The notes beneath the pieces were generated by a model, which did no database searches, was not told the DNA's origin, and saw nothing but the letters and a program-made list of their open reading frames with translations. From contig JBJCIZ010001671.1 in NCBI GenBank assembly GCA_051294375.1, forward strand, positions 22,512 through 86,511: a stretch of DNA of 64,000 nt, read 5' to 3'. This document shows positions 8,699 through 62,619 of the stretch, one piece after another (within the stretch, counting starts at the first letter, position 1; every line of letters begins with the position of its first letter). Both the position numbers and the translations under genes were made by a program. Origin of the DNA: Paraspadella gotoi (Eukaryota > Animalia > Chaetognatha).

Positions 8699-8699
8699 T

Positions 8700-10560
8700 C
8701 GATTTACATAATTTGCGGATCCTAATACGTTCCAGCGTTTGCAGCGTTGGAATACTCGCCCACGAATCGGTTCTTCCGTAATCTGCCGCGGTTTTACTCC
8801 CTTGTATTCTTCCCGGGGATTCTTCAACCGGAGAAGAAGAACCGGACGGAGCGCTTCGGTCTGCTGTGCGGCCTGGATTCTAGCGAATCGACGTTTCCTA
8901 TCATCCGAAGGAGATCTAGCCTATTCTTGAGTACGCATACCGAAGCGGACGGTAAGGGGTTTTACGGATGCCTTTGTGTACGTGACTTTGCCGACGAGTG
9001 GACCCCGTCGGATAGCGACCCGGAGATCCGGACGATCGGTCTGCGGGTCATTACTTTTCCGTTGATAAAATTCCCGGTCGCTCCATGTCCTGCCGATACA
9101 ATGGGGTGCCAGTGAACCTGAATTGAGGGAGGATGGCGTGGTAGAAATTCGCCGATTCAGTTGATTTCACGATATCTGCACTTTCCTCCTCTTCACTCAC
9201 ATCTCTCTCGCACCCGCGCGGCGACGGAGTAATCGCAATTTACGTCGTCGGGAGTGAAACTTATCCTGGATTTCTACGACCCGACGTACGCGAATTGCAC
9301 CGCCTCGCATCGGGAGGCTGACGACCTGAAGAGTCAGCGATAGATGAAGGATAAAAACAGGCAGCGCCTCATCGTGATCATTCGAGGATTGCGCTGCGTC
9401 GTGTCGAAGCAACCCTCGGAGATGTCGAAAACCTCTTAAGGACTTCGCCTTTTCGGCACGTTGTCTCTGTTGAGCATGACTGTTATCGTTAGCTTGTAAG
9501 ACGATACATCAGAGGCTCGCCTTTAACGGGCTCTCAAGTATCGAAAAAGAGAAATATGATACTTCGCCGAAGTGACAAACTATTTGCGCAGGACCACCAA
9601 AATTACACCTTCCGAATATGCTTAGAATCTCACCTTCTTCAAATCGTCGTACAGTTTTCTTATTCTCTCCTGCCTCCAGCCGTGTACTCCTTTAGGAATG
9701 CCACGACTTTCTTCCATTCGGCCTCTCATACGATCGACAGAAGCGGTCGAGGCGTCTATGCGGGTCTCGTTTTGAACCGCGCAAGGCACTCCGAGCGCAA
9801 GAAACATCCTCCGGAAGCCAACCGCGGATATTGCACGTATATCAAAAAGCACTACGACCGCATCCGTTCTTCGCCGATATCTTAGGGCACGTTCTGGAAC
9901 GACGAGCGCGGATGGAAGGCTTTTGGCTCGGACTTCCTTAATCGCGCTCCACAACATCCTTGGGGCGCAGCGCCCTTACTCGTATCTCACGGGTCTAACT
10001 GCATGATCGGACGCGTGCCATCCACGGATAGAAGCATATCGTCGAATCGGATCTCTCCGTTCGCCGGCAGGCGACGCGGATACACAGGTTTAAGCAGTTG
10101 CCGGAGAGCTACGGAGATTCCCGCAAAAAGGGAATCCAGTTTTCGGCTGCACCAAGGATCCTGACGGACTGGACTTCGTGGCGTCCATCCCGGCCGTCTC
10201 TCATGCCTCCGCTCGTCTCCTGAAGGATTGATGGATGAATCTACCGCTCCCTCTTTGTCCTGTTCAGACGAGTCGAAAAACCGGCTGTCATAGTAGCTTA
10301 ACAAGCGACACTGAACGGAAATAATAATCATCCAGCCCATTTACGATAATGCTTTCTCGACATGCCGCAGCATGCACACGAGCCGATGTGGAGGCCTTTA
10401 GGTCCGGAAAGTGGAACTGCCGCGCGTAACCCGGAACGACGATCAGGAGCTACATAGCTTTACGCATCGCTGATTTAACCGACACCTGAGGACACAACCC
10501 AGGAACTCGCACCAACCCCGCTACCATGAACTGACGAAGACTTTACTCACGTCACGAGGG
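8700..10560 (-). pseudogene. Degenerate BEL/Pao pol fragment (RNase H end and integrase)
   Basis: Frameshifted minus-strand motifs in BEL order: W.H.P-like (~10410), RAVHLE-like 'GAIRV' and RRG (~9300-9220), W.F.P..A.H.GG-like (~9100), 'LESRP' = LNSRP (~8875), 'EY.PTLQ' (~8750). Confidence 0.55.
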
Positions 10561-10917
10561 CGTTCATCGAAGGATGTGGAATGCCGACACAGATTTTTCG
10601 GAAACTATTCTTTCGACTTTCATTGAAGTGTGCTCGTCGAATTGAGAGAGAATGGCGTGAGAAGACGAACGATTAGCTAACGCTCACCGACTTGTCCGAA
10701 TCTGCAGCATATGATGACGAGACGGTGAAATAGGAACAAAAGAGTAAACATCCTCATAGACATTTGCAAAGAGATCAGCACGAGACTAGTTTGGCGAAGG
10801 CCCGAGAGAGACCTGGAATAGACGACACGTGAGCGCTGGGCTTAATACTAAACAAAGAGACGAACGGGAACGAAAGGAAATTAACTAAGGGTACAGGAAA
10901 GGGCATCAGACAGTGCA

Positions 10918-13900: not shown

Positions 13901-16900
13901 ACTTTGCATATGAACAATCTTCTTTTGAGTCCCTTTTCGCACTTCGCCGTTCACGCGAGATCTCTCGACTTGATGTGCAGGCGATTTTTCCTATTCAGTG
14001 TTTCGTCGAACAAAAAAGGATCGCCACGTTTCGATTTTTGGTGGTCTTGAGGATGTATATGGAGAAGTTCTGTTTATGGGAGATGATCGTTTCAGCAGGT
14101 TCTTCGGGCGCCGAAATCGCTCGCCGACTGTGTGCCAGCTACTAGCGTCGCAGCATCTCAGGTTCCGTACGCCTTTTATGTGAACGGTTCCACCGGAAGT
14201 TTGCTGATAGCCTTATCATCAACGACTTTTTACGTGGATAATTTATTGCTTTCGGCGTATTTGATGGTTCCCGACCGTTGATGTTCGGCCCGAAGTCTCC
14301 GGATCGGCATTACGGAACGCGTGATGAAGCGTGGAGGCTTTGACCTTGTGTATTTGCTGGCTTGCGGTCATCGCATAGAGGCGTTGGAGGAGTGAATACG
14401 CCTGGCGTTGAAAAGGAATGGGAAGGACATAAAAACTCAGTGGGGTGGGTGTAGTGCGATGATAATTGGGAGAGGTCTTAAGGCGTTTGCCTTTGTTCTC
14501 ACGAGATATTTTCTCGTTCAACGGAACAAGAAGAAGGTGGAAAACTGAAAGTCCAAAGGCGTCGGCAAATGCTCTCACTCCACTAGCTTCCTCTTTGATC
14601 CGATTGGGGTTCGTGCACTTCTCCTGCGTGGAAGCGGAGATTTTTCAGCGGGCAACGAAAGAAAAACTCCGTGGGTGACCCGGATATCAAAGGAGGCTTC
14701 ATGCCGGATCACAAGTGCGGCAAAGAGGTTGTGAACTTCTTCATCGAGATTCCTCCTGGATTTCGACGAAGGGAAAACGCATGCGGTGCCGGAAAAATGG
14801 CACATCTTCTGCCGATGCCTCGAGTTGGGTTACGGCGTCGTTCATGTATCGTTTTCCGCGTCGAAGTTCCCATCAGAGCTCATGTGGATATCTTTTGGAA
14901 AGTCACGTTGTAGTGCCGTTGTCTTCGAGTAAGTGTTTGACTCCCAATGAGTCATTCCGCTGGCATTGGAGTTACCCGCGAAACTCTGCCGCCGAGCTTC
15001 GTCTATCTGTGCTGGAATCAAGTTTCATGAAGAATATTCGAGAGTTGTTTTCTGGTACGGGATTCGCATAACAGTCATCAAGCAAATTCGGACGAGAAGT
15101 GGCGTTTTATCCCGTTTTTCAAACATCGAATCTTCTCAATTCGGAAATTCCGAGTGTGGACGAATGGGAGATATGGTCCCGACTGCCGAAAATCGAGCGG
15201 ATATTGCGAGTCGAGGACTATCTGGCGAGGGGGAAAAATGGATGATTGGATGAAAGTTCTTACGTGGACTTGGATTTTCTTTGAGACCGGCATTCAACTT
15301 GGCCTCCCCGATCAAACGTGTTTGATTCCGGTGAATAACGAAGATCTTTCCGGGAGTGTCGCGAGAAAAGTGCGGCTATTGACGCCCTCTGTCGCTTCTC
15401 CGTTCATGCCCATTTTCCGCTGATTCGTGGATGCTTGATTACGCCGCCAAGTTTTTCATTCTTTGGGCAGGCCGCGTCTGGCGAAAAGACCGCGGTTTGC
15501 TCTTGCGCGTGGTTGGAGACCTTTGCGTTTTGGGAAAGGCTTCAACGCAATCTGCCGGCCAAGGAAAATTTCCTCGATCTTACATCGTCGATATTGAATC
15601 GGCGCGGATCGCCTATTTCGCTTGATTCAATTGAAATATTTCTGGTTTCCGAGATGGAATTTCTTGTCGAAATCGGTCACGCTTCCGCAACTTCGAAAGG
15701 AATTGAATTCAAAAATTCGCCTCTTTCGTAAGTTGTCTCCTTTCGTCGACAGCGGGGATGGGGAAGATGCGCGTCGGCGGACGTCTAATCTACGGGTAAC
15801 GCCGCGTCGCTTTCCTTCGAAGGCCTAAACATCCCATCATTTGCCTGGTTCGGTCTGACGACGATTCTAGGAGTAGTTCTTCGCCGCCCTATCGAATGTT
15901 CATAGATCGAGGGTCATGCAGGAATTGAGGCTATCTGCCAGTGAAAATACGACGCAAGTACTGGATCCTCCAATGGAGCGCGCCAAGCTGTCCGTCGAGT
16001 TCTCACCAATGCGTTCTACTGTCAAAAAGCTACAGCCACCGGACAAACAGAAAATGGCGCCGCTTCCGAGCTTCAGGACGGTCCCCAGTGCCGACCGTGT
16101 CTCGCGAACGTCCGGTCAGGTCGTCGATGCGCTTGGGCCCTTCGACATCAAGATCGGACCGTTGCCCGATAAGGCTGTGGGTGTGGCGCTCTTTACCTGC
16201 CTATATTCTCGCGCCGTTTCATCTTGAGTAGTTATTTTCTCTCTCGACTTCGTCCTTACATAAATTGCCTTCGATGTTGCTGCAGCGGAAGGACACGAAG
16301 GCCGGGCATACGGGCACCTCTTCAGCGTTAACGCAAACAAATTTCAAAGGTGCCGACACAAGCCTCCTGCACGAGCGACGCTATAAAGGATGAACATCGG
16401 CAACGACACTGATTAAAATTTCCATTGTCTTGGCTTCGACTGGGACTTCGCGCCGCCTCTCACGCCGCACTTATGTGGAGTTTGGGACGGATGGTTCGCT
16501 CGGCTAAGCGACTCTCTACGCCCCTACTTGGCGACAGGTCGCGCGATGGAAGACGTTTCGCACCATCATCACCGGCGCCGAAAGGAATCATCATCGTCGG
16601 CCTTTTAACGCTATAAGCAGCGATGCTCAAGACTGGTACTTTTAACGACCAGCTGATTTATCTTATCTCCGGAGTTCGCTGATAGGAACGTCGGCCGTCA
16701 TCTTCCCACCGCCGCCGTCTTCCGGCGATGCTTGCTGTCTGGAGGTAATAAGCAAGCGTCTGGATTGATTTTCATTCGAGCGGACGCTTTTCTCCACGGC
16801 GCATTATCTACCTAATCCTCCAACGCCCGAAACGTTTGGCAAACGACGCAGCCGGATCTTAAAGTCGGCCAACTCGTCCTCTTGTTGACGAGACCAAGGT

Positions 16901-16950
16901 CGAGGAACGAGTGGAGGCTTGGCGTTATCGAAAGCGGTGCATGGCGGACG
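10918..16950 (-). pseudogene. Heavily degenerate BEL/Pao LTR retrotransposon gag-pol
   Basis: Minus-strand relic motifs in order: C..C..H..CP.F knuckle (~16350), YAMTA (~14380), SLFYPLG = FDPLG (~13625), NRV and W.HVP...SRG (~12870-12770), NFMG (~11765), LLSPAAF = LTP.HF (~11320). BEL-type GGGGGGAT purine tract followed by TG at ~10925-10916. Confidence 0.7.
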
Positions 16951-17819
16951 CGAATGGAAAAATATTTGAACGCGATCGATCTAAGATTCGTCGTTTGGAA
17001 CTAGATGAGTGAAGTAAAAACGAATACCTCATTCCCTCAAGAACTAAAAATTTTGTATATTATATTCCATTATGCCATGCATAACCGAATTTACTTTTCG
17101 AGAGGCTTCGATGAAAAACGAAATTTCGTTTTTACCCAAATTTTTATTTCGCTTTCGAGTCGATTTACCCCATAGGGACTGCTACCAAAACCGAAATTCA
17201 GATTAAATGTTTTTCAATTTGAATTTTTTAATTTTTGTATTTTTACTGTTTAAGACAATGATTTTTTCAGAAACTGTGTTTGTTTTGGTTAAGAGTTTAT
17301 TTTTAAGAATTTATTTTTATATTTTCAGTTGTGGAAGTAGGGTTTTTAAGAAAAATTATTTTATTTATTTATTTCGATTATCGTAAGTGCGACCCCTACT
17401 CGAAAATTTTTTCTCAGATTTTGACAGTAAAAAATAAAAATTTTGGATTGTTCGATTCGTTATTATTTATGTCGAATTTCAAGCTTATAATAAGATCAAA
17501 TTGGGATTTTGGCGTACAGTCGTATGTTTCTGCGATTTCTTTTATTCATTATTTGATTTTCAGCGGTACGTCACCACGGGCCTGTTCAATTTTGAAGTTG
17601 CGGACTTTTGTATATTTTTTTGGAGAAAAAAGAAAATATTTATTATTGGGCCTCATTATTAATTTTTTGGGTTTTCAATACGGGCGTGCGGGTTTGTCGC
17701 TTCGTCCTTTTGTTTTCTCCCTTTTTTCTCAGTTTTAGTACCGGTCCTTTGTTTCTGTACCGCCTTATCGGAGTTTCAAGTTTGACGCCGGAAAGACTTT
17801 TATTAATTATATCAAAGCT

Positions 17820-19400
17820 TCGAAATGCAGGCCACTACTAGTGCGCAGGTGGTCTGCTGGTTGGACATTCGGGGTGCGGCGAGGCGGGATTGTTCTCGTC
17901 TTCCACCCGTTTCGCCGTTGCACGGATGCAGCTTCAAGGTTATGGTTTGTCGGGCGGCTCTGTTGATGGACATCGTTCTTGGAGATCCCGGCGGTTTGCC
18001 GCCGAAAGGGGTTGCGGAATGCTGGGTACGGTACTGGCCGACAATGGATTTGTCTTCTTCCGGGCTCTCCGGAAGTGGATCGATGCCTCACTGCTTTCAG
18101 GGCGAGCGGGCTATTCAAGTCCTGATAAATCTACAGAGATCCCGCTTCTGTGGAGGAGATTATGCCCGTCGATCTCGACCTCTCCTCCGTTGGCGAGGGG
18201 AATTGGGTCGGATTTAGAATTGATAGACCAAGAGCATGTTGCCGCAGGCTCTGCAACGGCTTCGGCGCCTTTCCGAAGGGGAGACGACGACGCCGGGAGG
18301 CGTCCTTCTTCTTCCGATGACGTGAATCCCCGCGCTTTCCCCGCGCAAGATAAGGGTTCCGTCTCGGTCAGGCTTGTGGGAGCTCGGACCCCAGGAAGAT
18401 AAGTCCGGTTCACGACCGTACAGCGAGGAGAGCCGTAGGTTGCGGGGCTCTGAGCTTCTGCCCTGGCTCCGCGTAGTGGCACCTCCACGCGCAGCGTCGC
18501 GATCCGCGCGCGAGGAGCTGGCGGCCAATGGAAGCCGGCGATCTGCCGGACCGACTTGTACTCGGGCTCGGATCTCGCGTGGATCGGTCAATCGGCCAAA
18601 CAATCTGGCTACCGCACGACGGAGCCAGGAGGCAGGTTCCTGTTCAAACCGTTCTGCGGGCGTTTCGACGTCGGGGCCGTCTCGCGGAACTGAGAGACGC
18701 AGAGTGCAGAGGGCATGCTCGGTAGGAAGTGCGAGGGACTCGCGCAGCGTATGTGCAGGATCCCGGGGCCCCTGCGAACCATGCGATCTGCAGAAGTTCC
18801 GTCTTTGTTCAGGGAGTTCAGGTTTGCAGGACACGGAGACGAAGAGAGGCCGTGCTGCATCCGAGGAGAGAAGGAAGATGGACCTCGATAGAGGGCGCCA
18901 CAGGCAGTGTCAGAAGTAGCTACTAGGTGACGCTGTGCTGGCGGAGTCCGGTCGTCGGCTGATGCGGGTGATGGAGATTGTTGCTCATCAAAGGAATATC
19001 TAGTTTCATCGAAATGCCCGTCGGACGAGGGAGCAATGCTGTGTTTCAGCAGAGAGGAGGAGAAAAGAGGAGGAGAGGGCCGAAGGCGACTTTTAGGTTG
19101 CAGAGGCAGTTGGCGGCATGGGTTCGGCGAGCTCCCGCTTGCAGGTGCCGTTTTGAGCGTTCTGGCCGTCGGGAAGAGATTGGGGACGCGGTTCAGGGCG
19201 CTTTTCTGGGATTGGTTGCGTTGCTGGAGATCGGAGGGAGGTCATGGAGCTTGAGTACGTCGGAGATTATGCCGGTGGTCGGGACAATCGCCGAAAGGGG
19301 AAAGGGCTCCTCCCGGGACAGGCGAAAGGCCGCACGGACAGGGCTGATCCTTGAGTCTGTAGGAGTAGTGTAGAGGGGCGTTGTGAATTCCATCTCCGTC
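17820..19400. other. GC-rich degenerate coding-like segment, unclassified (probably TE-derived)
   Basis: Sharp GC shift and overlapping short ORFs; no recognisable motif. Confidence 0.3.
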
Positions 19401-20639
19401 CCGCTCTTTGTACATAAGGGCAGCCTTGGTGTCCGTGGATTCTGGTTTTGTATGTGGAATTATTTATTTTATGTGTTACAGCCTTCTCCCTTCTGAGATG
19501 GCAGAGGCTATTTATTAACGGCATTGTGAATCAATTGTGTGGTATGGTACGGAACGCTTCCTTGCATTTAATATGGGTGGTATATTGTCACATGTGATTT
19601 ACTTGTAGTATGACTTATGTCAGTCTCGGGGTTTTTTCCCATCTAAACAATTATTAAATGTGTTATTTTATTTTTTTATTATTTATTATATTGCTTTATT
19701 CAGTGCAATGAGATAAAAGAAGGAGAAGAAGATCAGAGGTATTAAAGTACTGTGTGTTAGAGATTATAAGTATGTATAAGCTCAAAATGCAAATGACAAT
19801 GAAACAGATCAGATCTTTGTCAAATTCGTTTGGATTTAAAAAACGTAGTTAAATTTAAAAAATAACAAGAATATAATTAGAAAATGAAAATTTTAGAAAA
19901 TTTTGAAAAAGGCCAAATATTAGTCCTAGAAAAATAAATTGACTTATATCATTATGTTATTATATGCTAAAGATTATGTGTGCTAGATAAATCATATAAG
20001 TAGTGTTCTGGCCATAAGGTACCACCTAATATTATTCTGAATCGTTAATTATATAGATAGAGTGAGAAAGTATATAATCAGTTGAGAACAGGTATTTGAA
20101 TTTAGAGTATACCAAACGCGATAGGATATTGCAAAAAAATTTGAAAAGTTACAAAAACCTTTCAATTAATATTCGGGTCTCCTAATTAAAAATATGCATA
20201 AAAAATATAGATTACAAGTTGTAATTTATATATGTAAATTCCATGCGCAATGACAAGGACTTCAAAAATTACTGTTTTAGTTTTTATGAGCATGATAACA
20301 AATTATTTTATTAACTTGAGATTTTTAAAAAGAGTAATGTATAGTCTCACTATATTATATATTCATCTAAAGTGATACCGCATTGATAAAATAGTTTATC
20401 AGATAAAGAAGAAAACTAAGACTAAATTATAGTGATAGTTATTACTTTTATAAAGTTAAAAAGATACGAATGAAAGAAATTTCCTCTGTCAACGTTTTTA
20501 ATATATGTAATTTTATCTTACTTATGTATAATAGTATCACTTAACAAAATCATATTTAATACAGTGTTAGCAGGCTCTAATGATGTAATGTTTATTCTAA
20601 ATTAGAGACAGCAAATAAAACAATTATCTAAGCATATAT

Positions 20640-38044: not shown

Positions 38045-38653
38045 TAGGCCGGAACAGGTTGAAAACTAGAAGTTCTCTCAAATAAATAATGATAAAGTGA
38101 CTGTTAAAGAATATGAAAATAAAAATAATTTTAAAAAATTATCTTATTAATAAGCGCACGGAAGCATTTAAAGATTATTTTATTACTATATATAGTTAAA
38201 ATTTTTTTTTGAATTTTTCAATTTTTTTTAATGGATTCTGATAGAGCTTTAAAGTTAGATAAAGGTTATTAATACAAATTTTAAAAATTTTGTTGTTTAT
38301 TGATAAAAATTTTAAAAAACTAGAAAAATTCAGCCAAATGATGATGATGATGATGATTTTTTTAACGTTTTTTCTGTTTTTAACCAATTTCTTGTCAAGA
38401 TTTTGAAAAATTGTAGTACTAACTTTCATTTAACTTTTCAAGCTCTATAGGAATCCGTTCTTAAAAACTAACTTTTTTAAAAAAATTTTTGTCATTTATT
38501 ATATATTAATAAATATTTAAAAAGCTTCAGTGCAACAACCCAATGAACTAATTCAAAAAGTTGCATTGAAAATCGATTTAGTAATAGAAGGAAAAAGGAA
38601 TTTTTTTGAGAGAATTAAAAGTTATAAAAAGTGTTCAATTTTGGCCCGCCTTA
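38045..38653 (+). mobile_element. 609-bp MITE insertion with 7-bp TSD TACTCAT
   Basis: The empty site CATTACTCATACTG is present in copy B (~51501). TSD at 38038-38044 and 38654-38660; imperfect TIR TAGGCCGG/CCCGCCTTA. Confidence 0.85.
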
Positions 38654-39249
38654 TACTCATACTGCTCCAGAATGGGCGCATCCTCTTCTGGGCCAAGGTT
38701 CGAATTCAAGGGTTTCCTCTCCTGGCTGAGGACCGAGCATTTTTGTCTTCATGTTCTAATTTCTGGATTTTTCTTCTTGTTCTTGTTCTTTATCTTTTGT
38801 CAATTGTTTCTTCGCTCGGTTCCTCGCCGCGGATGGTCACCGTTTCACACATACGTTCCACATTTTCCCGGATATCAAGACTTTGGAAGACGGGCTCTAC
38901 TGGCGCTGCGCTTCCAAACTTTTGGATTTTATTGTTTTCTTTTATTTAGTTTCGTATCTTCGTAATTTCTTTGATGTTGAGTCGTTCAAATAGGCGTTCC
39001 AATGATCTACTGTGCGCGCGCAACCCGTTCTATTTGTTCCCTTGATCTTGATCCGCCACGCCCACATCCAGGCGTGTCGAACTTTGATGGGAAATCTTTC
39101 GTCCAGTTAATAAAGATTGTGCCTCCCCTTGAGCTGGCACTGCCGCGCCCTTGGGTGGCCCACACTTTGCCAGCTCCTCTTTCCACGCTGGCATGGCCGC
39201 GCGCGGAAGGGATGGCTTGCACATTCATTCTTCCATTCTTTGCACGCGA

Positions 39250-39530
39250 GAATTGGCTGGTTGCCGCCGACTTTCCCTTGACGCAATGGTCGGGTTTGTT
39301 GGCGGTTTCCGACGCCGAAATTCTCTGGCTGGTTGCCGTCGGCTTTCCCATGACCCTGAGGTCGGGTTGGCCGGCGGTTTCCGACGCCTCACTCCTCTGG
39401 CTGGTTGCCGTTGGCTTTCCCATTACCCTAAGGTCGGGTTGGCCGGCGGGTTCCGACGCCACATTCCTCTGGCTGGTTGCCGCTGACGTTCCCATGACCC
39501 TGAGGTCGGGTTGGTCGACGGGTTCCAACG
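39250..39530 (-). repeat. 66-bp tandem repeat, frame-preserving (ASEPAGQPDLRVMGKPTATSQR)
   Basis: About four units in ORF 39007-39528; homologous array at ~52130-52410. Confidence 0.85.
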
Positions 39531-40323
39531 CCAGATGTTACATCAGATGTTGATCGTTCGCAGTTGCTCGTTCACATGGAGAATAAAAGAGACAAAGATT
39601 AGTAATCATATGTTAGACAATCTTTTGTATCTGTTTTTTCCAGTGATTATAATTGTTTTAATATTTAAACGAATATGGATTTAAAATATATGTTGTGTAA
39701 GAGTTTAGTCTTTAACTAAATTCTTAAGTTTTATTTGTTAATTTTAATTCTGATAAATATGCTAGTTTTATAATTTTAAATATTTCTTTGCTCTTTTTTA
39801 TCTGGGTTTCTCGTTTTTTTTTTATGTTTCTGTTCAAATTTATTCATTTTTATATAATATAATATAATATTTATTGTTAGCAGTTTTAATCATCACTATT
39901 CTTACATGACCATGTATTTTTCATTAGCTTAAATAGTAAATTAGTGACGTCGGAAACGAAACAAAATGCTAATCAAACTTCATTAGGTCAGGGGCTACAA
40001 AACAATTTATTATTCAGACATTCATAGTGGGTTTCATCTCATAACATATCAGTATATGGCGACTCACCGGATCAGCCATGCAGCAGTGAGAGATGTCATG
40101 TTGTGAGGCTGTGAAAGATTCCGTGGAGGAGAAGTCGCCACCACTTTCGCGTATGTCATGGGGTCCTGTCTCGGGGCAAATGCTGTAACATTATGCACAA
40201 TAGAGTGGTGTGGCCCATCACATACAATACAGGCATTTTTAGGCAAGTTACACTGTTTAGCCAAATGGTTCTTTTCAAGACATTTCACATACAATACAGG
40301 CATTTTTAGGCAAGTTACACTGT

Positions 40324-40620
40324 CATCGCAGAGGAATCAAGACTCCAGAATCGAATTCGGAGCAACGGATTGATTGAAGCCCACCGGAAATACAATGGAA
40401 CTTTCTCATTGGTCGAAAGACAAATGGCATCGGCCAATGAACAAATGGTCGGGAAATTTTACCCTTACCTCTGATCCGTATGGGCCATATAAAAGGGAAC
40501 CAAATTCTGTATTGATTCACTCTGCCTGGAAATTGACACCATCTTGTTCACTGTCTATTTTCTGAAGAAATAAAATCCACTTTGATTTCGCTTAGAAATC
40601 CCTGCCTTGCTACTAAATTG
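40324..40620 (+). repeat. 5' LTR
   Basis: CATCGC...CTAAATTG; TATAAAA at ~40488 and AATAAA at ~40569; matches 45810-46106. Confidence 0.93.
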
Positions 40621-40641
40621 TGGTGACAGGAGTGGATTCGA
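40621..40641 (+). promoter_or_regulatory. Primer-binding site, tRNA-Leu-type
   Basis: TGGTGACAGGAGTGGATTCGA directly after the LTR; resembles the complement of a tRNA-Leu(CAG/CAA) 3' end (TGGTGTCAGGAGTGGGATTCGA). Confidence 0.8.
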
Positions 40642-40709
40642 CACACCACGTCTCCACGAAAGAAGAACCAAGCCTTACCCCACCAAGAACCACGCCACCC
40701 CTCAAGAAG

Positions 40710-41741
40710 ATGGACCCGTCCGCCCCAGCAATCCCGCCCGCCAAGGCAGGATGGAAGAAAGGGGCTGCGACGCCAACCATAGGCGCCGCGCCAACGCAAG
40801 ACGGTAGCAGCAACGCAGCAGATATTGAGTTCCACACTTTCGAACTCACCGACTACCTGCAGCAACACTGCCAATCAGGCAACGAGCAGGCGGAGGTCAC
40901 CCTCCAAGTGCTCAAAATTATCAACGACGTCAACTTGCACAACAGGCAAGAAATGGCCGTCCTCAAGGGCCACGTCAAAGACTGCGAGGCCAACCTTGGA
41001 ACCAAAATGGACGATCTCCGCGAGATGATGAAGGAAATGATGACGCAAGTCAACAACAACAACCAACGAGACGTCAACGAAAGGCTCATGGGCCTTTCCC
41101 GGGCCCAGGCCCCGCCGAGTCTTTACCCCAACCTCCACGACGCCGCTCAACCAGTACAACCCCGCGAACACTTCCTGAGACAGACACCAGCAAAGTCTTG
41201 TCAAAACCCTCGAGATGAAGCGCCGTCTGAAAGCGGGAGAAGCGACCCGCCCTCCTACTCCACATCCGAGCAGCCGATCAAGCTCGAGAAAAGGAGATCA
41301 GACGAATCGCCCGCTGATTTCCTCCGCAGCTTCTATGAAGCATTTAAGGACTCGCCGACGCCGGATAAAGTCGACCAGCAGCTGCGCGCCCTCCTCGCCA
41401 GAGACAAGATTGCTAGCCGCTATGTCGAACCCATAAGCCAGTCCATGTGGCTAGGACTGAGGGCACTTTGTGAAGGCTCCACTATAAGTATCGCCGAAGC
41501 CCTCGTCGAAGCAAAACTCGAAGTGGATCCGCACGTGCACGCCAAATACGGATTGGCGCTCGTTAACACCGCCAGGGAGAACTTCGAGGCAGTAAGGGAA
41601 AAAGACAGGGCCTCCATTCCCGATTACGTGGCACAAATGCTCGTAGAGGCCCTGGAACCCTACGTCCCGGGAATCTTCTCACACAATGGAAATAATAAAA
41701 ACGAACGCCAACCAGGAAATCATGATGGACAGCACTCTTGA
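40710..41741 (+). CDS. gag: Gag-like protein (343 aa from first ATG)
   Basis: First ORF after the PBS; coiled-coil-like N-half, capsid-like ESPADFLRSFYEAF segment, no CCHC knuckle. Confidence 0.65.
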   Translation: MDPSAPAIPPAKAGWKKGAATPTIGAAPTQDGSSNAADIEFHTFELTDYLQQHCQSGNEQAEVTLQVLKIINDVNLHNRQEMAVLKGHVKDCEANLGTKMDDLREMMKEMMTQVNNNNQRDVNERLMGLSRAQAPPSLYPNLHDAAQPVQPREHFLRQTPAKSCQNPRDEAPSESGRSDPPSYSTSEQPIKLEKRRSDESPADFLRSFYEAFKDSPTPDKVDQQLRALLARDKIASRYVEPISQSMWLGLRALCEGSTISIAEALVEAKLEVDPHVHAKYGLALVNTARENFEAVREKDRASIPDYVAQMLVEALEPYVPGIFSHNGNNKNERQPGNHDGQHS

Positions 41742-43097
41742 AGCAGACATCGACACAACAGAAACTGAGGTCACCATGGAAATCAACCAACCGCTAAAAA
41801 GACAACCAAACCTCGTTCCACTCGCTTCTGAGGTAAAAAGATGGCAAGAAGAAGATGAGTCTTTCAACTCACTCAAAAACGGCAACCGAGAGGAGGCAAG
41901 ACAAAAACTGAACGAAAAAATGCAGAAAAGAAAAACGGCAACAGAAAAGTATTTGTCGAACTGCCTGGATGATTTTGACGTCACTAGCAACGACATCCTC
42001 ATCATAAAAGGCTTTAAGGCAGAGACGCCTACCAGGAAATTTGTTGTGCCGGCCCAAAAGGCCGAAACCATCAACAATTCCACGAACAATTCGGACACCC
42101 TGGCCGTGATCGCACAGCATTCATAACCGCACAGTACATCTCAGCCCCCGGTCTAACAACAGCCGCGGCAAAATGTCTTAGAAATTGTGACAACTGCGCC
42201 AAAGCGACGGACACGCAAAAACATAATGAAACTCCATCAGCTCCTAATCTAGCGATCGCACCCTGGGAGTCACTAAGCATCGACGTCATGCATCTTCCCC
42301 CAGTCTCCGGACATAATTATATCCTAGTTGCATCAGACAACGCCTCTGCCTACACCTGGGCGATCCCATTGCGCCGAGCAGACGCTGCAACCATAGTAAA
42401 AACCCTCGATGAAAAAATTTTTCTCCAACACGGGGCCTACATGGAAGTGAATTTCGATGGTGCAACGCAGTTAAATGGATCAGCCATGAAGTCAATACTA
42501 AATCTACTTGACACCGTAGGCAGACAAGTCCTCGTGGGCCGGAAGGACAGCAACAGGGCCGAAAGGGACATAGGCCGAATCCGCCAAGCCCTACGCAAAG
42601 CTGTCGACGATCAACCGAACAGATGGCTAGAACAGCTGCCACACCTGATGCTACTCCTAAATGCGACCCCCATAATTGGCTGGAAGACAGACATGTCGCC
42701 GCATGAAATCCAATTTGGCCATAGGCCGAGAATAGTAGAAAGCGCAGACGACTTCACCAAAAGAAATCTCATTGATTTTATAAGACAAAGGGCCAACAAA
42801 CAAGAAAGAGCTCAAGCACAGCTGGCAAACCAACGAACAAAGCTGTACAAACAGTCGACCAGAAGAAACCCCTACAAGCGACCAGAGGAGATTAAAATCG
42901 GTGACCTAGTCTTGGCCAGACGGGACCTTATCATGACCGGAACAGCAACAACTGAAAATAAGGTCAAACGGATATACTCAGGCCCTCACAAGGTCGTGGA
43001 GAAGGACGGCAACCATTATGTCGTCTCTATAGCCGGCCGAAACCTCAGATATCATCGACGTCGCCTCAAAAAGCATGAAACGAGGCCGGCAGAATAA
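41686..43097 (+). CDS. Ty3/gypsy integrase (one frameshift at ~42075)
   Basis: Pre-IN segment (WQEED...KFVVP), then FHEQFGHPGRDRT...CDNC zinc finger from 42078, SIDVM / NFDG / SNRAER catalytic triad (D-34-E), SPHEIQFG, and YSGPHKV (GPY/F). Confidence 0.9.
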
Positions 43098-43139
43098 GAA
43101 AATAAAGAAAAAAGAAGAAAGGAAGAGAAAATGTAAAAT

Positions 43140-43640
43140 AGTATGAAAGTAAAAGAAAATATATATAGAAAATATATATAGAATTGTATATAGAATTGTA
43201 TATATAAATATATAAATATATATAGAAAATATATATAGAATTAGCTCCTCAAATATATATAGAAAATATATATAGAATTAGCTCCTCAAAAAGACGTACA
43301 ATAGAATTAGAACAGCGAAATAAAGAAAAACGGAAAAAGCGAGACAAGGCAATCCCCTCGATCGGAATTTGAAAGAAGCGAGACAAAGCAATCCTCTCGA
43401 TTGAAAGAAACGAGGCAAGATAATCCCCTCAACGGGAATTCGAAAAGAAAACAAAAAGAAACAACGAGAAACGACGCCAGCAAGACAAAGCCAAGAAAAA
43501 CGAGCATTTTCATTCAAAAAAAAAAAAAGAATATTCTCTCTATCTCAAAAAGAAAACAAAAGACCACGAAGACGCCACGAGACAGAAGCCCGACGTAAAA
43601 CGGGAAACAACGAAAAACGACGCCAGTAAAAACAAGCATT
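43140..43640 (+). repeat. IN-env spacer with TA-rich and ~40-bp direct repeats
   Basis: AAATATATATAGAA repeats; three GCGAGACAA.GCAATCC.CTCGA-type units. Confidence 0.7.
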
Positions 43641-43869
43641 TCATCCAAAAAGAATAGTCTCTTTGTCTCGCTCCTTCTCGAAAAACATTCTATCAAAAAA
43701 ATTACTCTCTCTCTCTAATTCGAAAATAAAGAAAACAAAGAAAATATATCTCGCTCTCTCTCTCTCATTCAAAAATAAAAAAAAAAGAAAATCTATCTCA
43801 CACCCTCTCATTCGAAACAAAAAAAAAAAAAAAAAAACCTTTTTCAAAAGGATACGGTAAAGGAAAAAG

Positions 43870-45776
43870 ATGAAAAACCTTATCAATATTCTCGCCCTCA
43901 CCTCCCTCCTCATAAATTGGGGCATCGCAGCCCAAAAGGAAGAAACCAAACGACGAACGGACATTGTGCAAGTATATGATTGTAACAAAACTTCAAGCCA
44001 CGCCGCGACGATGCTCGATCCTCACCATTGCGACAACATCCAATCGGTCGCAGAGAAGATAATGCGTGGCGAATTGGTCTTCATCCCCGGAGAGGAAGAA
44101 CACGATGGTAAAGGATGTGACTTGACGATCATGGCCTCCGGAAGTGTATGTGGATGGTGGTCCATCCAGTACCCAAACCTAAAGGCGGTGGATCATTTCA
44201 CCCTCTCCAGGACTCAGTGCTTGATGCTCCACAAAGGCGAAAGCATCTCCCTGGAAAACGTCCCCATCAGACTGACTGACCGACCGAACTGGAGTTATGG
44301 AACCACTCAAGATCGACGGAGGAAAAATAGGATTAAATCAGGCAACTTACGAGATTGGCACGACTGACGCGGACGGTTATTGCACTGGCGAAAAGCTAAT
44401 CTTCCATGACTACACGTACGACGGAGAAAGGGCCACCCTCATGATCAACCTAACCCTTTACGAACAGAGGATCAAGTTAACGGACCTCAACAATATGCCA
44501 AAACAAACTGACTGCAATAGGGCAGCGCAGCTATGCACATACCCCGGTGGAGTCATCGCCTGGAAAGACCCTACCTGTCGAGCCCACAGGGCCTTTGCCG
44601 GACCAGTGGCTCGCAGCGACGACGGTTTTATCCGCAGCTTGACAGAAAAAGACAAAGAGATGGCGTTGAAAAACTGCACCCTCAGAAATGGAAAAACGCC
44701 CTGCATGGAAGCCAAGCACTAAAAGAGGACCCATCCAGTTGCTGGAGGCATTGCCTCACCTCCTTTGTCCGACCGGGATCGCTGAACAATTACGAACGTT
44801 GTGCACCAATCTGCGAAACTGAAAACAAAATTCTATTCACACTCCGAGCAGACGGGAAGCGGAAACCAGTGCCCGGCTGTGGCATCGACGTCGAGGAGAC
44901 CAGTTCTCACTTCTACTTTACAACGCACATCACACGTGATTTGACCTCAGACGAAAAGCTCATCCAAGCTTTACGCCAAAAGGGATCAAAATTGGCGCTA
45001 GACAATCAGGAAAGCCTCATCGCCTTGACCAAAGCATTACGCAAGGAAATCTGACCTCAAGGTCACGGAGGCACGGGCAGCAGCGACCATCGCTCACAAC
45101 AACCCCACTTCAACAACCTTCCTAAAAAGGGGCGTAATCGCGGTCTTAAGAGGCGAGCTACTGGTCACCGCTCAATGCGACCAAACGCTCGCTCACATTC
45201 GGGACACAGGACTGCTTCCACGACCTCCCGATCACCTTCAGGGGCCAGGAAGTTTTCCGACATGCCATTCATCACCACGTGGTGAAATCGTCAACAACAA
45301 CCAAATGCTCACCGCCGCCAATCTACCTCATGAACGAGAAATACCGTACAGTGGACGGCGAGCAGCACGATTACATCCGTTTAACTGCAAACGTCCCAGA
45401 TCTACGCGATCGAGTCTCCAAAGAGCAAGAAGTCTATCTGAGAATCGGGGATTTTCTGAAGCAGCACGATCAATACGCCAAGGACCAACAGGATCTCACA
45501 AAATACGCCGGAGAAATCGTAAGAGGATCTTCATACACAACGATCAGGAAGATCTTCGGGAACTTACCCAAGTGGGCGTGGCTAGCTGACGTGACCAATC
45601 TCATACCGTTCGTCACCGTCACCCTAGCAATAATCATAGGGATAGCTATAGCATGCTACTGTTGCCCACCTTGCGCATTCAGACGGGCACAGCAACAGCC
45701 AGAAATACTGAGCTTGGAACAAGTCCAGAACAGGATCTTCGTCCCCCTCACAATCGCAACTCCAGCTACCGACTGA
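43870..45776 (+). pseudogene. env: Envelope glycoprotein, chuvirus G-like (class III fusogen), broken by about four frameshifts
   Basis: Signal peptide; YDC...LD...C; C.L.I.....CG..S; C...H.G; G...DG.C.G; EI(C)DL; GELLVTAQC...IRDT.DCFHDLPI...C..P.Y; C-terminal TM FVTVTLAIIIGIAIA followed by CYCCPPC. Confidence 0.8.
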
Positions 45777-45794: not shown

Positions 45795-45807
45795 GAGGAG
45801 GGGGGGA
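45795..45807 (+). promoter_or_regulatory. Polypurine tract
   Basis: GAGGAGGGGGGGA, 2 nt before the 3' LTR. Confidence 0.85.
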
Positions 45808-45809
45808 CG

Positions 45810-46106
45810 CATCGCAGAGAAATCAAGACTCCAGAATCGAATTCGGAGCATAGGATTGATTGAAGCCCACCGGAAATACAATGGAACTTTCTCATTGGTC
45901 GAAAGACAAATGGCATCGGCCAATGAACAAATGGTCGGGAAATTTTACCCTTACCTCTGATCCGTATGGGCCATATAAAAGGGAACCGAATTCTGTATTG
46001 ATTCACTCTGCCTGTAAATTGACACCGTCTTGTTCACTGTCTATTTTCTGAAGAAATAAAATCCACTTTGATTTCGCTTAGAAATCCCTGCCTTGCTACT
46101 AAATTG
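45810..46106 (+). repeat. 3' LTR
   Basis: 297 bp, ~98% identical to 40324-40620. Confidence 0.93.
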
Positions 46107-46174
46107 CTGTTTAGCCAAATGGTTCTTTTCAAGACATTTCTTTTCATAACAATAGCTTTGTTTTCATTGGACAG

Positions 46175-47009: not shown

Positions 47010-47376
47010 AACAAGATTATGGAACCAGATGTGACTTTCTAAAAGGCGACTTTGCGGAAAAAGATGCAGATCATCAGTACCATCACGGGAGAAAGTTGAA
47101 GTTTGACGACTTCATCATCTTTCTCAAGAAAAGAATTCTTTTAGAAAAAGGAGCCTATGGAAAAAAGAAGATCACGGTCGACATCGCTGCCATCAACGCC
47201 AACGAATCACGCCGGAACCTGAACGGCGGGGGTGAAGCGACAAAGGTCAACCCTTTGAAGGTCAACCAAGGTTTTCATTCATCGAGTGTACGAATTGCTC
47301 AGAAAGTGAAAGTTGAACATGCTTGTGTATGTTGTAATGAATGGCACATGTTGGAAGCTTGCAAAGCTTTTAAAAA
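47010..47376 (+). pseudogene. Inverted fragment of the BEL-type gag
   Basis: Reverse complement of ~53200-53567 (KFDDFIIFLKKR...CVCCNEWHMLEAC). Confidence 0.9.
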
Positions 47377-50675: not shown

Positions 50676-53600
50676 CTAGTGAATCTGAATTTGTCTTGTT
50701 TGAGTCTGTCCAAGTAAAGTTTGGAGAGAGAGAGAGAGAGAAAGAGAGAGGGAGAGAAAGAGTGGAGAAAGAGTCAGGTCCAGTCCCTGTCGGTCGATCG
50801 GTCAATCGGTCGAATGGGTCGGATCTGGCCGTCTCCGTCGTCTCGGCCTTTTCTCTTCACCCCCGCCTCGGCTCTAGGGCTCCTAAGACCTAAGCAAGAC
50901 CGTCTAAATGGCCGCGCAGGACCGACGGTATCATACGAATCTAACCTATCAACCCCCTATTCTTCTTCATGTCTTCTTGTTTCGGAGATGGAGTTTCCGA
51001 TGATCTTCATCTTGTTTCTTCGTTCGATGACATCTTGGTTCCTGAAGAGCTGTTTGAGGGGTTGAGGAGAAATATTCATACACTCATTCATTCGTTCATC
51101 GATTCATTCCTTCATTTGTTCGTTCGTTCATTCATTCATTCGTTCATTTGTTCATTCATTCGTTCATTCTGGTTATCTTGGATGGATAAGTTTCTTGTTC
51201 AATCCGAATCTTGAAATGTTAAGCGTTTTCCTGTCAGTTTGTTTTAATCTTATTTTAAGGTTTTCTAGTCTTATTTCTATTGTTTGTTTCTTCTGGTTGT
51301 TCTTGTTCGGTTTTTCTTGTTTTTCTATTTGTTTCTTGTTTCGTTTTTGTCTTATTGATTTTAAGAGTTTCTTTTTTGTTGTAATATCAAGTTTTTGTCT
51401 TTGGAGTTATTTTTATACATACTGCTTTATGTAAATGACATTATGTTTCATTCAATCTATAATATATCATTCTTTCATCGATTTCTTTTTTGTTGACATT
51501 CATTACTCATACTGCTCCAGAATGGGCGCATCCTCTTCAAGGGTTTCCTCTCCTGGCTGCAGGACCGAGCATATTATCTTCATCTAAATTGTTCTAATTT
51601 CTGGATTTTTCTTCTTGTTCTTGGTCTTGTTGATGGTCTTGTTCTTGGTCCATTGTTCTTGTTCAGTTCATTTTCTTGTTCTATTTCTTTTGCTCGGTTC
51701 CTCGCCGCGGATGGTCACCGTTTCACACATACGTTCCACATTTTCCCGGATATCAAGACTTTGGAAGACGGGCTCTACTGGCGCTGGCTTCCAACTTTTG
51801 GATTTTATTGTTTTCTTTTATTTAGTTTCGTATCTTCGTAATTTCTTTGATGTTGAGTCGTTCAAATAGGCGTTCCATATGATCTACTGTGCAGCGCGCA
51901 AGCCGTTCCATTTGTTCCTTGATCTTGATCCACCACGCCCACATTCAGGTGTGTCGAACTTTGATGGGAAGCCTTTTCGTCCGGTTAATAAAGATTGTGC
52001 CTCCCCTTGAGCTGGCACTGCCGCGCCCTTGGGTGGCCCACACTTTGCCGGCTCCTCTTTCCACGCTGCATGGCCGCGCGCGGAAGGGATGGCTTGCACA
52101 TTTCATTCGTACATTCTTTGCACGCGAGAATTGGCTGGTTGCCGCCGACTTTCCCTTAACGCAAAGTTCGGGGTTGGTCGACGGTTTCCGGCGCCGAATT
52201 CTCTGGCTGGTTGCCGCGGCTTTCCCATTACCCTAAGGTCAGGTCGGCCGGCGGGTTCCGACGCCACACACCTTTGGCTGGTTGCCACCGGCTTTCCCAG
52301 TACCCTGAGGTCGGGTTGGCCGGCGGTTTCCGACGCCGCACTCCTCTGGCTGGTTGCCGTCGGCTTTCCCATTACCCTTAGGTCAGGTTGTCCGACGGGT
52401 TCCGGCGCCAGAGCTCCGTCAGATGTTGATCGTTCGCAGTTGCTCGTTCACATGGAGAATAAAAGAGACAAAGATTAGTAGTTATATGTTAGACAATTTT
52501 TTTTTGTATCTGTTTTTTCTAATGATTATAATTGTTTTTAATATTTAACGAATACGGATTTAAAATATATCTTGTGTAAGAGTTTAGTCGTTAACTAAAT
52601 TCTTAAGTTTTATTTGTTAATTTAAATTCTGATAAATATGCTAGTTTTATAATTTTAAATATTCTTTGCTCTTTTTTATCGGGGTTTCTCGTTCTTTCAT
52701 GTTTCTTATTCATTTTTATTTTAATATAATATAATATTTATTATTAGCAGTTTTAATCATTATTTTTACATGACCATGTATTTTTCATTAGCTTAAATAG
52801 TAAATTAGTGACGTCGGAACGAAACAAAATGCTAATCAAACTTCATTAGGTCAGGGCTACAAAACAATTTATCATTCAGACATTCATAGTGGGTTTCATC
52901 TCATAACATATCAGTATATGGCGACTCACCGGATCAGCCGTGCAGCAGTGAGAGATGTCCATGTTGTGAGGCTGTGAAAGATTCCGTGTAGGAGAAGTCG
53001 CCACCACTTTCGCGTATGTCACGGGGTCCTGTCTCGGGGCAAATGCTGTAACATTATGCACAATAGAGTGGTGTGGCCCACCACATACAATACAGGCATT
53101 TTTAGGCAAGTTACACTGTTTAGCCAAATGGTTCTTTTCAAGACATCTATAACATAAACCATTTCTTTTCATAACAATAGCTTTGTTTTCATTGGACAGT
53201 TTTTTAAAAGCTTTGCAAGCTTCCAACATGTGCCATTCATTACAACATACACAAGCATGTTCAACTTTCACTTTCTGAGCAATTCGTACACTAGATGAAT
53301 GAAAACCTTGGTTGACCTTCAAAGGGTTGACCTTTGTCGCTTCACCCCCGCCGTTCAGGTTCCGGCGTGATTCGTTGGCGTTGATGGCAGCGATGTCGAC
53401 CGTGATCTTCTTTTTTCCATAGGCTCCTTTTTCTAAAAGAATTCTTTTCTTGAGAAAGATGATGAAGTCGTCAAACTTCAACTTTCTCCCGTGATGGTAC
53501 TGATGATCTGCATCTTTTTCCGCAAAGTCGCCTTTTAGAAAGTCACATCTGGTTTCCATAATCTTGTTGATAACAGTGTCTTCATCCATTTCACTCCCTT

Positions 53601-55051
53601 TTTCATATTTATCAGCCAAAACTTTGACATTCTCCAATTCAGTGGTTAACCTGTCCAATTCTGTTCTGTTTCCTGGCATTATCTTAGGTTTGGCCAAGAT
53701 ATCCCTGAGAAAATCATGGACGTTGGCATCTTTCTTCCCAAATTCTTTTCTTAGGGTCTCCAAAGCTTCTTTAATTGCCTCAGAGTGGTCATTTTCTTTC
53801 ATTATGAATTTGGTTAGTTTCATATGAGCCAGTCCTGTAAACCAATGGTTGAGCTCTTGTAGTTTGACCTCGTCAGTAGCTTCAGCCTGTTTCATGGTTG
53901 CTTCATATGCTCGCATATGCAGTTCAAACACAACATTCTTGTCTTCTCCAGAAAAAGGTTTCTTTGGCCTTCCCTGTTCGACATTCCTCAGCATGGAATC
54001 CTTTTTCAATTGGTTCATCCAAATTGCCATAATTGAATCGTTAAGGTTGGTTGCTGTGGCAGTTGGTGCTGGGGTCATAACCGGAGTTTGAGCCAAACAA
54101 TCTGAGTCGGCTTCAAAAAAGCGGGTCGTTGTACCTCCAAAACTCACTCGTCGATTTTTTTCATTTTCCAATTTTTGGGTGAGATTATGGACCAAGTCCT
54201 CCAGCTGATGGATCCTCCTTTCTTGTTTCTTTAGATTCACTTCATGGTTGACACAGCAATCGCTGAGCTTAGTCATAGTTTCAGCTTTCCCAGTTCTTGT
54301 TTCATTAAAGATTCTTTCCATGCATTCGAGGCGTCCTTGAAGCATTTGGAAGGCTTTGCACATTTCATTCAAGTCATTTCGCATTCTTTCATTTTCGGCA
54401 GAAGAGGATTCGCGACGGCGACTTCTGCGTGACTTCTCGTTTTTCTTTCAATCTTCTCATTTATTGTCTTCATTTCTCTCTTTTATTTCGTTCATGAGTT
54501 CATTTCTTTTTCCATCTCTATTTTCTTTTTTCTATTTCTTGTTTGTACTGCTCTTCTTCTTTTCTTCTTTTTCCGCCTTGATAAGGGTCAATTCATGTTG
54601 TTCTTTGTCAAATTTTCCTTTAACAAATCTTTTCATCATTGAAGTCGTGGTCCGAGCCAGAATCCTCTTGATCAACAGCATTGTGTCATGCTGCTACATC
54701 ATCATTCGTCGCTTCATACGTTTGCTTCACCGCCGTTTCAGAGTCTCCGATGTCGAGTCGAAATCCTCACTTTCACTCTGCCTTTTCAGAATCATGAGTT
54801 TCCCGCCGGGACTCTGGTCCTCTCCTCGCCATGGCGACGCATAGCAATGTTCACTATTTGGAGAGTTTGGTCGAGAAGATTGAGATCGTCGGGAGATCGG
54901 CAAGACTCTTGAGCAGCCTTGGTCTGTCTCTCTTCAATTCGAGGAGGTCCATAGTTCACCGGCGATAATGACCGATTCGGGGTGGCGAGTTCCTGGTAGC
55001 GCTCGATGAGCCACACGGTGCCTCAGACCTCCAGGAAAAAAAAAATTTCAA
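50676..55051 (-). mobile_element. Gag-only unit, copy B (uninterrupted)
   Basis: Homologous to 37269-48126; no pol motifs between gag and the unit end. Confidence 0.75.
52876..54384 (-). CDS. gag: BEL/Pao-type Gag-like protein (502 aa)
   Basis: Coiled-coil N-terminus, FSG...KLQ.L...G.A capsid-like region, three BEL-type knuckles (CVCCNEWHMLEAC, CYRCLEKNHLAKQC, CIVCGGPHHSIVH). Frameshifted upstream extension to ~55020. Confidence 0.85.
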   Translation of the reverse strand: MRNDLNEMCKAFQMLQGRLECMERIFNETRTGKAETMTKLSDCCVNHEVNLKKQERRIHQLEDLVHNLTQKLENEKNRRVSFGGTTTRFFEADSDCLAQTPVMTPAPTATATNLNDSIMAIWMNQLKKDSMLRNVEQGRPKKPFSGEDKNVVFELHMRAYEATMKQAEATDEVKLQELNHWFTGLAHMKLTKFIMKENDHSEAIKEALETLRKEFGKKDANVHDFLRDILAKPKIMPGNRTELDRLTTELENVKVLADKYEKGSEMDEDTVINKIMETRCDFLKGDFAEKDADHQYHHGRKLKFDDFIIFLKKRILLEKGAYGKKKITVDIAAINANESRRNLNGGGEATKVNPLKVNQGFHSSSVRIAQKVKVEHACVCCNEWHMLEACKAFKKLSNENKAIVMKRNGLCYRCLEKNHLAKQCNLPKNACIVCGGPHHSIVHNVTAFAPRQDPVTYAKVVATSPTRNLSQPHNMDISHCCTADPVSRHILICYEMKPTMNV

Positions 55052-60556: not shown

Positions 60557-60903
60557 CATCGCCAATGAATCAAAGACTCCAGAAATTAAAATCGTGAGAA
60601 CCAACGGATCGGCCATTCATACGGATCGGATCAACCGGATACGTGATCAGGCGAGAATACAATGGACAACTACTCTCTGCGATGGCTAGAAAGCTACTTA
60701 TATAATGGCACCGGCCAATGAAGCAAATGGCGGGAAATTTGACCTTACCCCTATCGTTTGGGCTGTATAAAAGGAACCGAATTCTGTATTGATTCACTCT
60801 GCCATTGAAATTGACACCGTCTTGTTTATCGTTTATTTCGAAGAAATAAAAATCCACTTTGGGTTTCGCTCAAGATAATCCCTGTCTCCACTTACTAAAT
60901 TTG
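60557..60903 (+). mobile_element. Lone LTR related to the 40324-46106 element
   Basis: CATCGC...AAGACTCCAGAA...GGCCAATGAA...TATAAAAGGAACCGAATTCTGTATTGATTCACTCTGCC...ACTAAATTTG; a diverged subfamily with no internal ORFs following. Confidence 0.88.
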
Positions 60904-60905
60904 TA

Positions 60906-60946
60906 TGGTGGCAGCGGTGGGATTCGAACCCACGCCTCCCGAAGAG
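60906..60946 (+). promoter_or_regulatory. Extended PBS / reverse copy of the 3' half of mature tRNA-Leu (AAG/TAG type)
   Basis: TGGTGGCAGCGGTGGGATTCGAACCCACGCCTCCCGAAGAG is the complement of CCA, acceptor stem, T-arm and variable arm. Confidence 0.85.
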
Positions 60947-62619
60947 GCGACCTAGGTAATATTTTAATTAGGCTAGTACCTCGGAAAAATAATTGATAGA
61001 TATATATTTTAACGGGCTTTTATTCATTAGCATTTAAATGTTCATCGGCTATGCTAGTAAAAGGGATAACTAATCATGATTTCATTTTTGTTTAAAAAAT
61101 TACATTTACAAACGGTTTTGTCCTTCAATACACATTGATTCTTTTGTCATTGAGCCGATCTTCTCACCTGCATCCTCTGATAGCCTCGATCCAGGCTTGA
61201 CCATTCTGCCAGTGACTCTGCCTTAACTCGTTATTGCTTTAGTAGTTGCCCCTCTCGCCAGACAGGAGATGGAAAAGCAGGTCTGAAAAACCAAAGGAAA
61301 CATTTCAATTTAAAGATTTCTAATTTGTGATTAAACTTTTTAGTAAAACGAATTAATGAAGGATTTTAAGACTCGTAAGAGTCAATCTCAGATCTGTAAC
61401 TAATGGCACAGCTACTTTTAGTACAGTATTGCACTCTTGCACTTCTCAATTTGATTCGCGATCATTTCAACCAAACTAAGAAACTTTAAGAACGAAGAAA
61501 GAAAAAATATATTAAATATTAAACGCAAACAATTCTTAAAAAATGCTACAAAGTTCTGTAGCAGTTTTTTTGAGCGAGACAAAAACCCTATTCTACTACG
61601 TTGTTACAAAGAGCTAACTGCGGCGTCCGCCTTAACTAAGCATAATTAAAACATTTTTTAGCATACATTTTTTGTTTTAAATGTCGCTCTTTTTTTTCAC
61701 ACGTTCATCTCACAGGACAGGAAGACTACAAAAAAAATTACATAGCAGAAACGCCAAGAAAAACTATGAAATTAAAAGTTTTTTGTCCTTAAATCTTGAC
61801 ATAACATTTGACTATCAAGTAATCTCCTTATCAAATCTTACTATGCAAGCGAATCGCCTTCCGAATATAAATCAGAAAGAATTAACGAAAGAATTTGTTT
61901 AGACAATGTCATTACATTTTATATCGCCGCCTCGCGCCGAGACATGATGGCTAAATCGACCGACGACGACGACGACGACGACGACTGACCGACGACGACG
62001 AACGATGTTAAACATTCAGGCGAGCTCAACTTCGATGAAATCACTGAACGACCGATGCTTAACATACGCATGGGGGGAAAAAGAATGGAGAGAGAATACC
62101 TAGAGACAGAGAGAGAAACGAAAGAAGCAGGGAAAGAAAGAATAGAAGATATGAAAGACGATGAGAGAAAAGAAGAAAGATAACGGAAAAGAAAGAAAGA
62201 AAGAAAGAAAGAAAGTTAGAAAGAAAGAAAAAGAAAGAGAACAGCGAAAGAGAGTAAAGAAGAGAGAGAGAGAGAAAAAGGAAAGAGAAAGTCAAAGAGA
62301 GAGAAACGAAAGAAAGAAAGACAAGAAAAGAAAGAGCCAAGCCAGGAAAGAAAGATGAGAAAGAAAGAAAGGAAAGAAAAAAAAAGCAAAGAAATATCGA
62401 ACACGAGAGAGAGAGAGAATTCTCACGTTAATGTTCTTAACTCATTATATCTTCCCATTTAACGAAAGTTAAATGAGATACACAGAAAGTTAATTTAGGT
62501 TACGAATATGAGAATAGTTGCGACGTGAAAAAGAAGGAACAAAGGAAAATAACGGTTTAAAAAGATTGCAGAGAGACGAGAGAAAGGTGGGCAGGAGATG
62601 AGAGAGCGATGAGAGACGA

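Follow-up and report, generated by a model that had tools for sequence, protein, structure and literature searches.

A defective Ty3/gypsy element of Paraspadella gotoi, without protease, reverse transcriptase and RNase H, carrying a broken env-like gene of likely chuvirus glycoprotein type

An env-like gene lies at 43870..45776 of the + strand in a 64-kb window of Paraspadella gotoi DNA, the window being the whole stretch of 64,000 nucleotides analysed here. The locus raises the question of what kind of element carries this gene, what kind of glycoprotein it encoded, and whether the copy could still act. A preliminary description, made without database searches, had proposed an independent acquisition of a chuvirus-type glycoprotein by a Ty3/gypsy element. 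In this study, we found that the locus is very probably a defective, env-carrying Ty3/gypsy copy that is without protease, reverse transcriptase (RT) and RNase H. Its env is broken four times and is likely of a class III type already described across invertebrate gypsy elements.

The LTR element is 5,783 bp long, and all of its features are on the + strand. Its two 297-bp LTRs (40324..40620 and 45810..46106) show 6 differences and are 98% identical. They are flanked by a 4-bp target-site duplication (40320..40323 and 46107..46110), and a sister site near 53116 that carries no insertion has these four bases once. In the 5' LTR, CCAAT, TATA and AATAAA-like words can be read. A primer-binding site that begins with TGG is flush with the LTR end (40621..40655), and a polypurine tract (45795..45807) stands two bases ahead of the 3' LTR. 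The structural features of a Ty3/gypsy element, namely paired LTRs, a target-site duplication, a PBS-like site and a polypurine tract, were all found. Between the LTRs, a gag-like ORF (40710..41675) is followed by a pol remnant (41677..42070), an integrase (42057..43097), an A-rich non-coding spacer of ~770 bp between pol and env (43098..43869), and the env-like gene, whose ATG at 43870 and stop at 45776 are as previously described.

The element sits in one of two copies of a BEL/Pao-like element, in its gag and on the opposite strand, within a 67-bp tandem duplication. The two BEL/Pao-like copies are on the minus strand (38500-40323 and 51500-54450), with a 72-bp tandem repeat, and a 523-aa gag-like ORF is found at 52876-54447. 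We take the triple zinc-knuckle pattern of the target ORF to mark it as a BEL/Pao-like gag.

The class of the carrier was examined through its integrase, which matched the Pfam families Integrase_H2C2 (E 6e-7) and rve (E 6e-5). The best PDB match was Ty3 Gag-Pol (E 1.3e-14), and it covered the GPY/F-like region. The spacing from the second D to the E of the D-D-E triad is one shorter than canonical. The names H2C2, D-D-E and GPY/F are motif labels that we presume to apply. A homolog search found a single full-length pol (P0001), 23% identical and of gypsy layout, which aligned to the integrase alone. A BEL-type pol was not indicated by these matches to Ty3 and to a gypsy-layout pol, on which the exclusion of BEL/Pao is based. 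These sequence matches support a Ty3/gypsy carrier, in agreement with the preliminary description. The first ORF had no capsid match in Pfam or PDB and is called gag by its position; related copies among the contigs matched it at 80-90%. By sequence comparison, both the env and the integrase are very divergent and far from anything retrieved.

The missing part of pol had escaped the preliminary description. No RT or protease motif was found in the three + frames of the element. Among the contigs listed from public runs of the same organism, which were the longest records, those matching gag at 80-90% left the window at 41668-41675, and two of them ran on for ~2.77 kb of unlike sequence past this point. 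On the other side, listed contigs with 88-94% identity to the pol remnant started at 41677, preceded by 250-520 bases of unlike sequence. The junction was bridged, in the same list, only by identical or near-identical contigs without any substitution relative to the window. The coding frame also switches at ~41675, and the open frame of the gag-like ORF, which is likely shortened at its 3' end, continues to a stop at 41741. The pol remnant had no informative Pfam match, and its frame differs from that of the integrase near 42070. The contig departure points and the frame switch place a putative deletion junction at 41668..41680. As the simplest reading, a single deletion at ~41675 likely removed the protease, RT and RNase H, the identity of the lost part being presumed. 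Since related copies leave the element at ~41675, the element is likely a deletion derivative. An RT-less layout common to the diverged copies was considered and rejected, as those copies begin at 41677.

The deletion may be older than the insertion, given LTRs with 98% identity and open frames in both gag and integrase. The same two observations would fit a non-autonomous family, which keeps gag, integrase and env, is without protease, RT and RNase H by design, and is driven by a helper. We consider such a family very unlikely, as the diverged copies among the contigs listed all stop at the junction, only contigs without substitutions bridge it there, and env is broken four times and pol once more. 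No relevant paper on a gag-integrase-env family lacking RT was listed in a literature search, as judged by title and the start of the abstract. A single deletion in a once complete element is the reading that we follow below.

The env-like gene consists of five frame pieces, with breaks near 44285, 44705, 45040 and 45205. A codon-usage path, trained only on the gag and integrase of the element, was run with four penalties. At all four, it switched frame near 44280, 44710, 45030 and 45200, close to the frameshifts previously described at ~44295, ~44700, ~45052 and ~45209. The middle 900 bases of env, which were held out of training, beat 200 of 200 Markov nulls. The third piece (~44710-45050) showed the weakest frame signal and no PF24664 match, and therefore further breaks could hide in it.

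Assembly errors in a gene that is intact in the genome would be another source of such breaks. N gaps are indeed present in the window, as is a second element with heavy frameshifting, at 8-17 kb. Against this, one contig of run X1 (1,872 bases) spans the four breaks with 0 gaps, and contigs of runs X7 and X8 cover them piecewise with 0 differences. Seven of the nine runs are a possible source of the assembly, and X8 is not marked as one. We hold assembly errors to be exceedingly improbable; the env breaks are genomic. An intact env allele, which had been suggested as something to seek in the reads, did not appear in the X1, X7 and X8 contigs, which repeat the four breaks. Over gag (40748-41748), an otherwise identical contig of run X1 shows a difference of 6 gap letters, and the locus therefore likely has alleles among samples. 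There are also weak signs that diverged relatives carry an env at the same place, as extra contigs were found over 44120-44325 and one contig links 44242 to 45759.

Several other features of the window were recorded. The frameshifted stretch at ~8000-17000 is GC-rich and without a Pfam match, and its motifs resemble, as we presume, those of a BEL/Pao pol. The stretch at 17800-19500 is also GC-rich; it holds several open frames, each 130-230 codons long, that overlap one another and have no Pfam match. Between N gaps, 47023-47376 repeats the 354 bases of 53201-53554 perfectly in inverted orientation, which is possibly a scaffolding artefact. Of the other 132 ORFs listed, 128 had no Pfam match at a threshold of E 0.0005.

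The five env pieces sum to ~623 aa with 22 Cys and three N-glycosylation sequons. A hydrophobic stretch lies at the N terminus (hydropathy 1.53 over 19 residues), and one transmembrane segment (2.65) and a short Cys-rich tail at the C terminus, which fits the previously proposed type I membrane protein of ~630 aa. The motifs YDC, CG..S, DG.C.G, GE....QC and CF.DLP, noted earlier together with the Cys-rich tail, are present in the translated frames. No furin-type site (R-x-K/R-R) was found in the five pieces.

The identity of env was then addressed by profile searches. When stop-to-stop frames were used, two of five matched PF24664, Monjiviricetes_fusion (E 0.007 and 0.015). When the pieces were trimmed to the parts that the frame analysis supports, four of five matched the same family in collinear order, at profile positions 25-128, 143-218, 348-391 and 396-445. 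These matches scored 14.5, 10.1, 10.2 and 10.5 bits (E 0.009-0.18), all of them below the 27-bit cut-off. Single pieces reach similar scores with unrelated families, so that the evidence lies in the collinear recurrence of one family. Piece 1 was searched against 1.84 billion representatives and yielded 9 matches. Two of them (P0005 and P0008, with 7 and 5 short, repeat-like stretches) were left out before alignment, and the 7 kept are short unnamed metagenome fragments. Four of these 7 matched PF24664, and three had no Pfam match. P0002, 34% identical to piece 1, reached 29.1 bits on PF24664 and was above the cut-off. Both P0003 and P0009 align to piece 1 as well as to piece 2, and these two pieces therefore belong to one gene.

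AlphaFold models were poor, with pLDDT 46 for piece 1 and 41 for P0003. A fold search with the piece-1 model gave no match. With the P0003 model, Foldseek ranked first an unnamed 647-aa protein (E 0.001), followed at ranks 2-10 by nine glycoproteins of negative-strand RNA viruses, several of them named chu-like (E 0.003-0.044, 13-19% identity, TM 0.14-0.18). The nearest viral neighbours were chu-, qin- and rhabdo-like proteins, and identity to the viral matches was 13-21%. Bunya-like glycoproteins first appeared at rank 13 (E 0.14), and the 50 matches listed include no protein named as a baculovirus F. An F-type env was likewise not indicated by Pfam, as no F-family match was found in the env pieces. 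The env alignment had 0 matches among PDB sequences, and the ESM Atlas gave no usable match for piece 1 or P0003. Searches for full-length env homologs found none, which is a weak negative, and locus searches of metagenome and viral contigs had no match.

These profile matches and fragment models support a glycoprotein of the chuvirus/Monjiviricetes G (gB-like) type and not a baculovirus F or class II protein. The chuvirus-type assignment of the preliminary description was thereby supported, by the collinear PF24664 matches, by P0002 and by the Foldseek search with P0003. The length of ~620-630 aa compares with a 653-position PF24664 profile. In contrast to the virus genes, the env has low identity to them, has no other viral genes near it and is embedded in a retrotransposon. 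Chuvirus/gB-like glycoproteins are class III fusogens (PMC13524379). The env likely once encoded a class III (chuvirus-G/gB-like) fusion glycoprotein, its fusion activity being a prediction.

The independent acquisition inferred in the preliminary description was considered in the form of a capture, separate and more recent, in which this gypsy lineage took up the glycoprotein of a negative-strand RNA virus. The chu-, qin- and rhabdo-like neighbours of P0003 and the divergence of env, with so few matches among the representatives searched, would be consistent with it. However, the library searched with Foldseek consists entirely of viral proteins, which left errantivirus envs no chance to appear among the matches, and the identity to the viral matches does not suggest a recent event. 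Moreover, this type of glycoprotein is widespread in gypsy elements, and Chary and Hayashi argue for its ancient origin there (PMC13524379). A recent capture is thus quite unlikely, and an env of the class III type already known in gypsy elements is the reading that we retain.

The published record bears on the claim that chuvirus-like glycoprotein capture has been described mainly in BEL/Pao elements. According to Chary and Hayashi (eLife 2026), this glycoprotein stands beside gypsy pol in 221 of 1,512 invertebrate elements (ENV_HSV), and BEL/Pao chuvirus-like glycoproteins used as baits led to 114 gypsy elements with homologs (PMC13524379); the claim does not hold against these counts. Dezordi et al. 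(2020) defined Anakin, a BEL/Pao element with a chuvirus glycoprotein (PMC7642597), and Dezordi et al. (2023) reported an association with gypsy fragments and no clear capture (PMC10084718). The pairing of gypsy and chuvirus-type env is already published, and the present element is a divergent dead example of it.

As in the HSV/gB-type errantiviruses of PMC13524379, the present element has a gypsy-type integrase, gag-pol-env order with env after pol, LTRs and a tRNA primer site, and both kinds of env show a signal peptide, a Cys-rich ectodomain and a transmembrane segment, theirs being called Chuviridae-like. Unlike theirs, its gag, pol and env ORFs are not intact, and this copy would fail the intactness filter described in that paper. 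Its LTRs end in CA...TG, and termini are not discussed in the part of that source drawn on here. Anakin is likewise an LTR element with the same glycoprotein type, and its copies are often defective (PMC7642597). The present carrier differs from it in being Ty3/gypsy by its integrase, the BEL/Pao-like gag being its insertion target only. Tor of Oikopleura is also a gypsy element with env, likened here by description only; its target-site duplications are 4-5 bp, and in some Tor groups env is reported to be driven by a promoter that lies between pol and env (PMC4402516).

In an intact relative, the LTR would drive the genomic RNA and Gag would package it. Pol would copy the RNA from a tRNA primer, likely Leu, and integrase would insert the copy with a 4-bp duplication. 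Env would come from a spliced RNA or from an internal promoter, which may lie in the 770-bp spacer. The predicted Env would act as a glycosylated trimer, fusing the membrane of the particle to that of a neighbouring cell, probably a germ cell. In the present copy, a single deletion at ~41675 likely took out the middle of pol. The copy may have integrated with enzymes from a complete relative, or the deletion may have followed insertion, and the copy would now be inert. Any movement would need a helper, and an anchored Env could not be made; at most, a short, unanchored N-terminal piece of env may be secreted. Because the protease, RT and RNase H are missing and env is broken, the copy is not infectious by itself, and the proposal of a potentially infectious element could not be upheld for it.

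The integrated LTR ends are CA...TG, the reverse of the usual TG...CA. A diverged third LTR at ~60558 has the same first six bases in a different flank, and the X9 contigs part from the 5' LTR context at 40324. The 3' terminus is defined by a single insertion only. To our knowledge, insect errantiviruses are likewise without TG...CA, and the CA...TG ends can therefore be viewed as a modest variation. A literature search for non-canonical gypsy LTR termini turned up only plant work, one study of which names other motifs (10.1101/137141). Troyka elements (Kojima 2025) also have non-canonical LTR ends starting with C, and rare variants start with CA or end with TG (PMC12440569). Troyka has CG...CG ends, 3-bp target-site duplications, no GPY/F and no env, whereas the present element has a 4-bp duplication, a GPY/F-like motif and env. 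Membership in Troyka was rejected on these differences in end motif, duplication length, GPY/F and env, as they are given in that source.

The third LTR (60558-60952) is a diverged LTR of the same family, ~81% identical over its 3' part, with no gag behind it. Behind it, ~45 bases are complementary to a tRNA 3' half including CCA (Rfam E 9.5e-5, below the gathering score), and the primer-binding site of the element aligns with this tRNA-like tail. The third-LTR match far exceeds the usual 18-base primer site, and the site of the element also seems extended. The third-LTR primer 12-mer occurs 11 times in the table of Chary and Hayashi, 9 of them labelled Leu (PMC13524379). The 12-mer of the element has 0 exact matches in that table; it is 2 letters off three Leu entries and 1 letter off an entry labelled 'others'. 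Rfam had no match at the element's own site, and ARAGORN found no tRNA gene. These comparisons suggest that the site at 40621..40655 is likely for tRNA-Leu.

A bolder reading would be a deep-branching gypsy lineage that captured a Monjiviricetes-type glycoprotein separately from the published gB-type errantiviruses, whose integrase acts on reversed CA...TG ends and of which several diverged complete subfamilies are still in the host genome. We regard it as unlikely. If CA...TG ends were to hold over many insertions, annotation based on TG...CA would miss such elements; the ends would matter if widespread because integrases are reported to join a CA end nearly always (10.1101/137141). If the family proves to be a separate capture, it would matter more, as it would bear on the direction of class III fusogen exchange between RNA viruses and retrotransposons.
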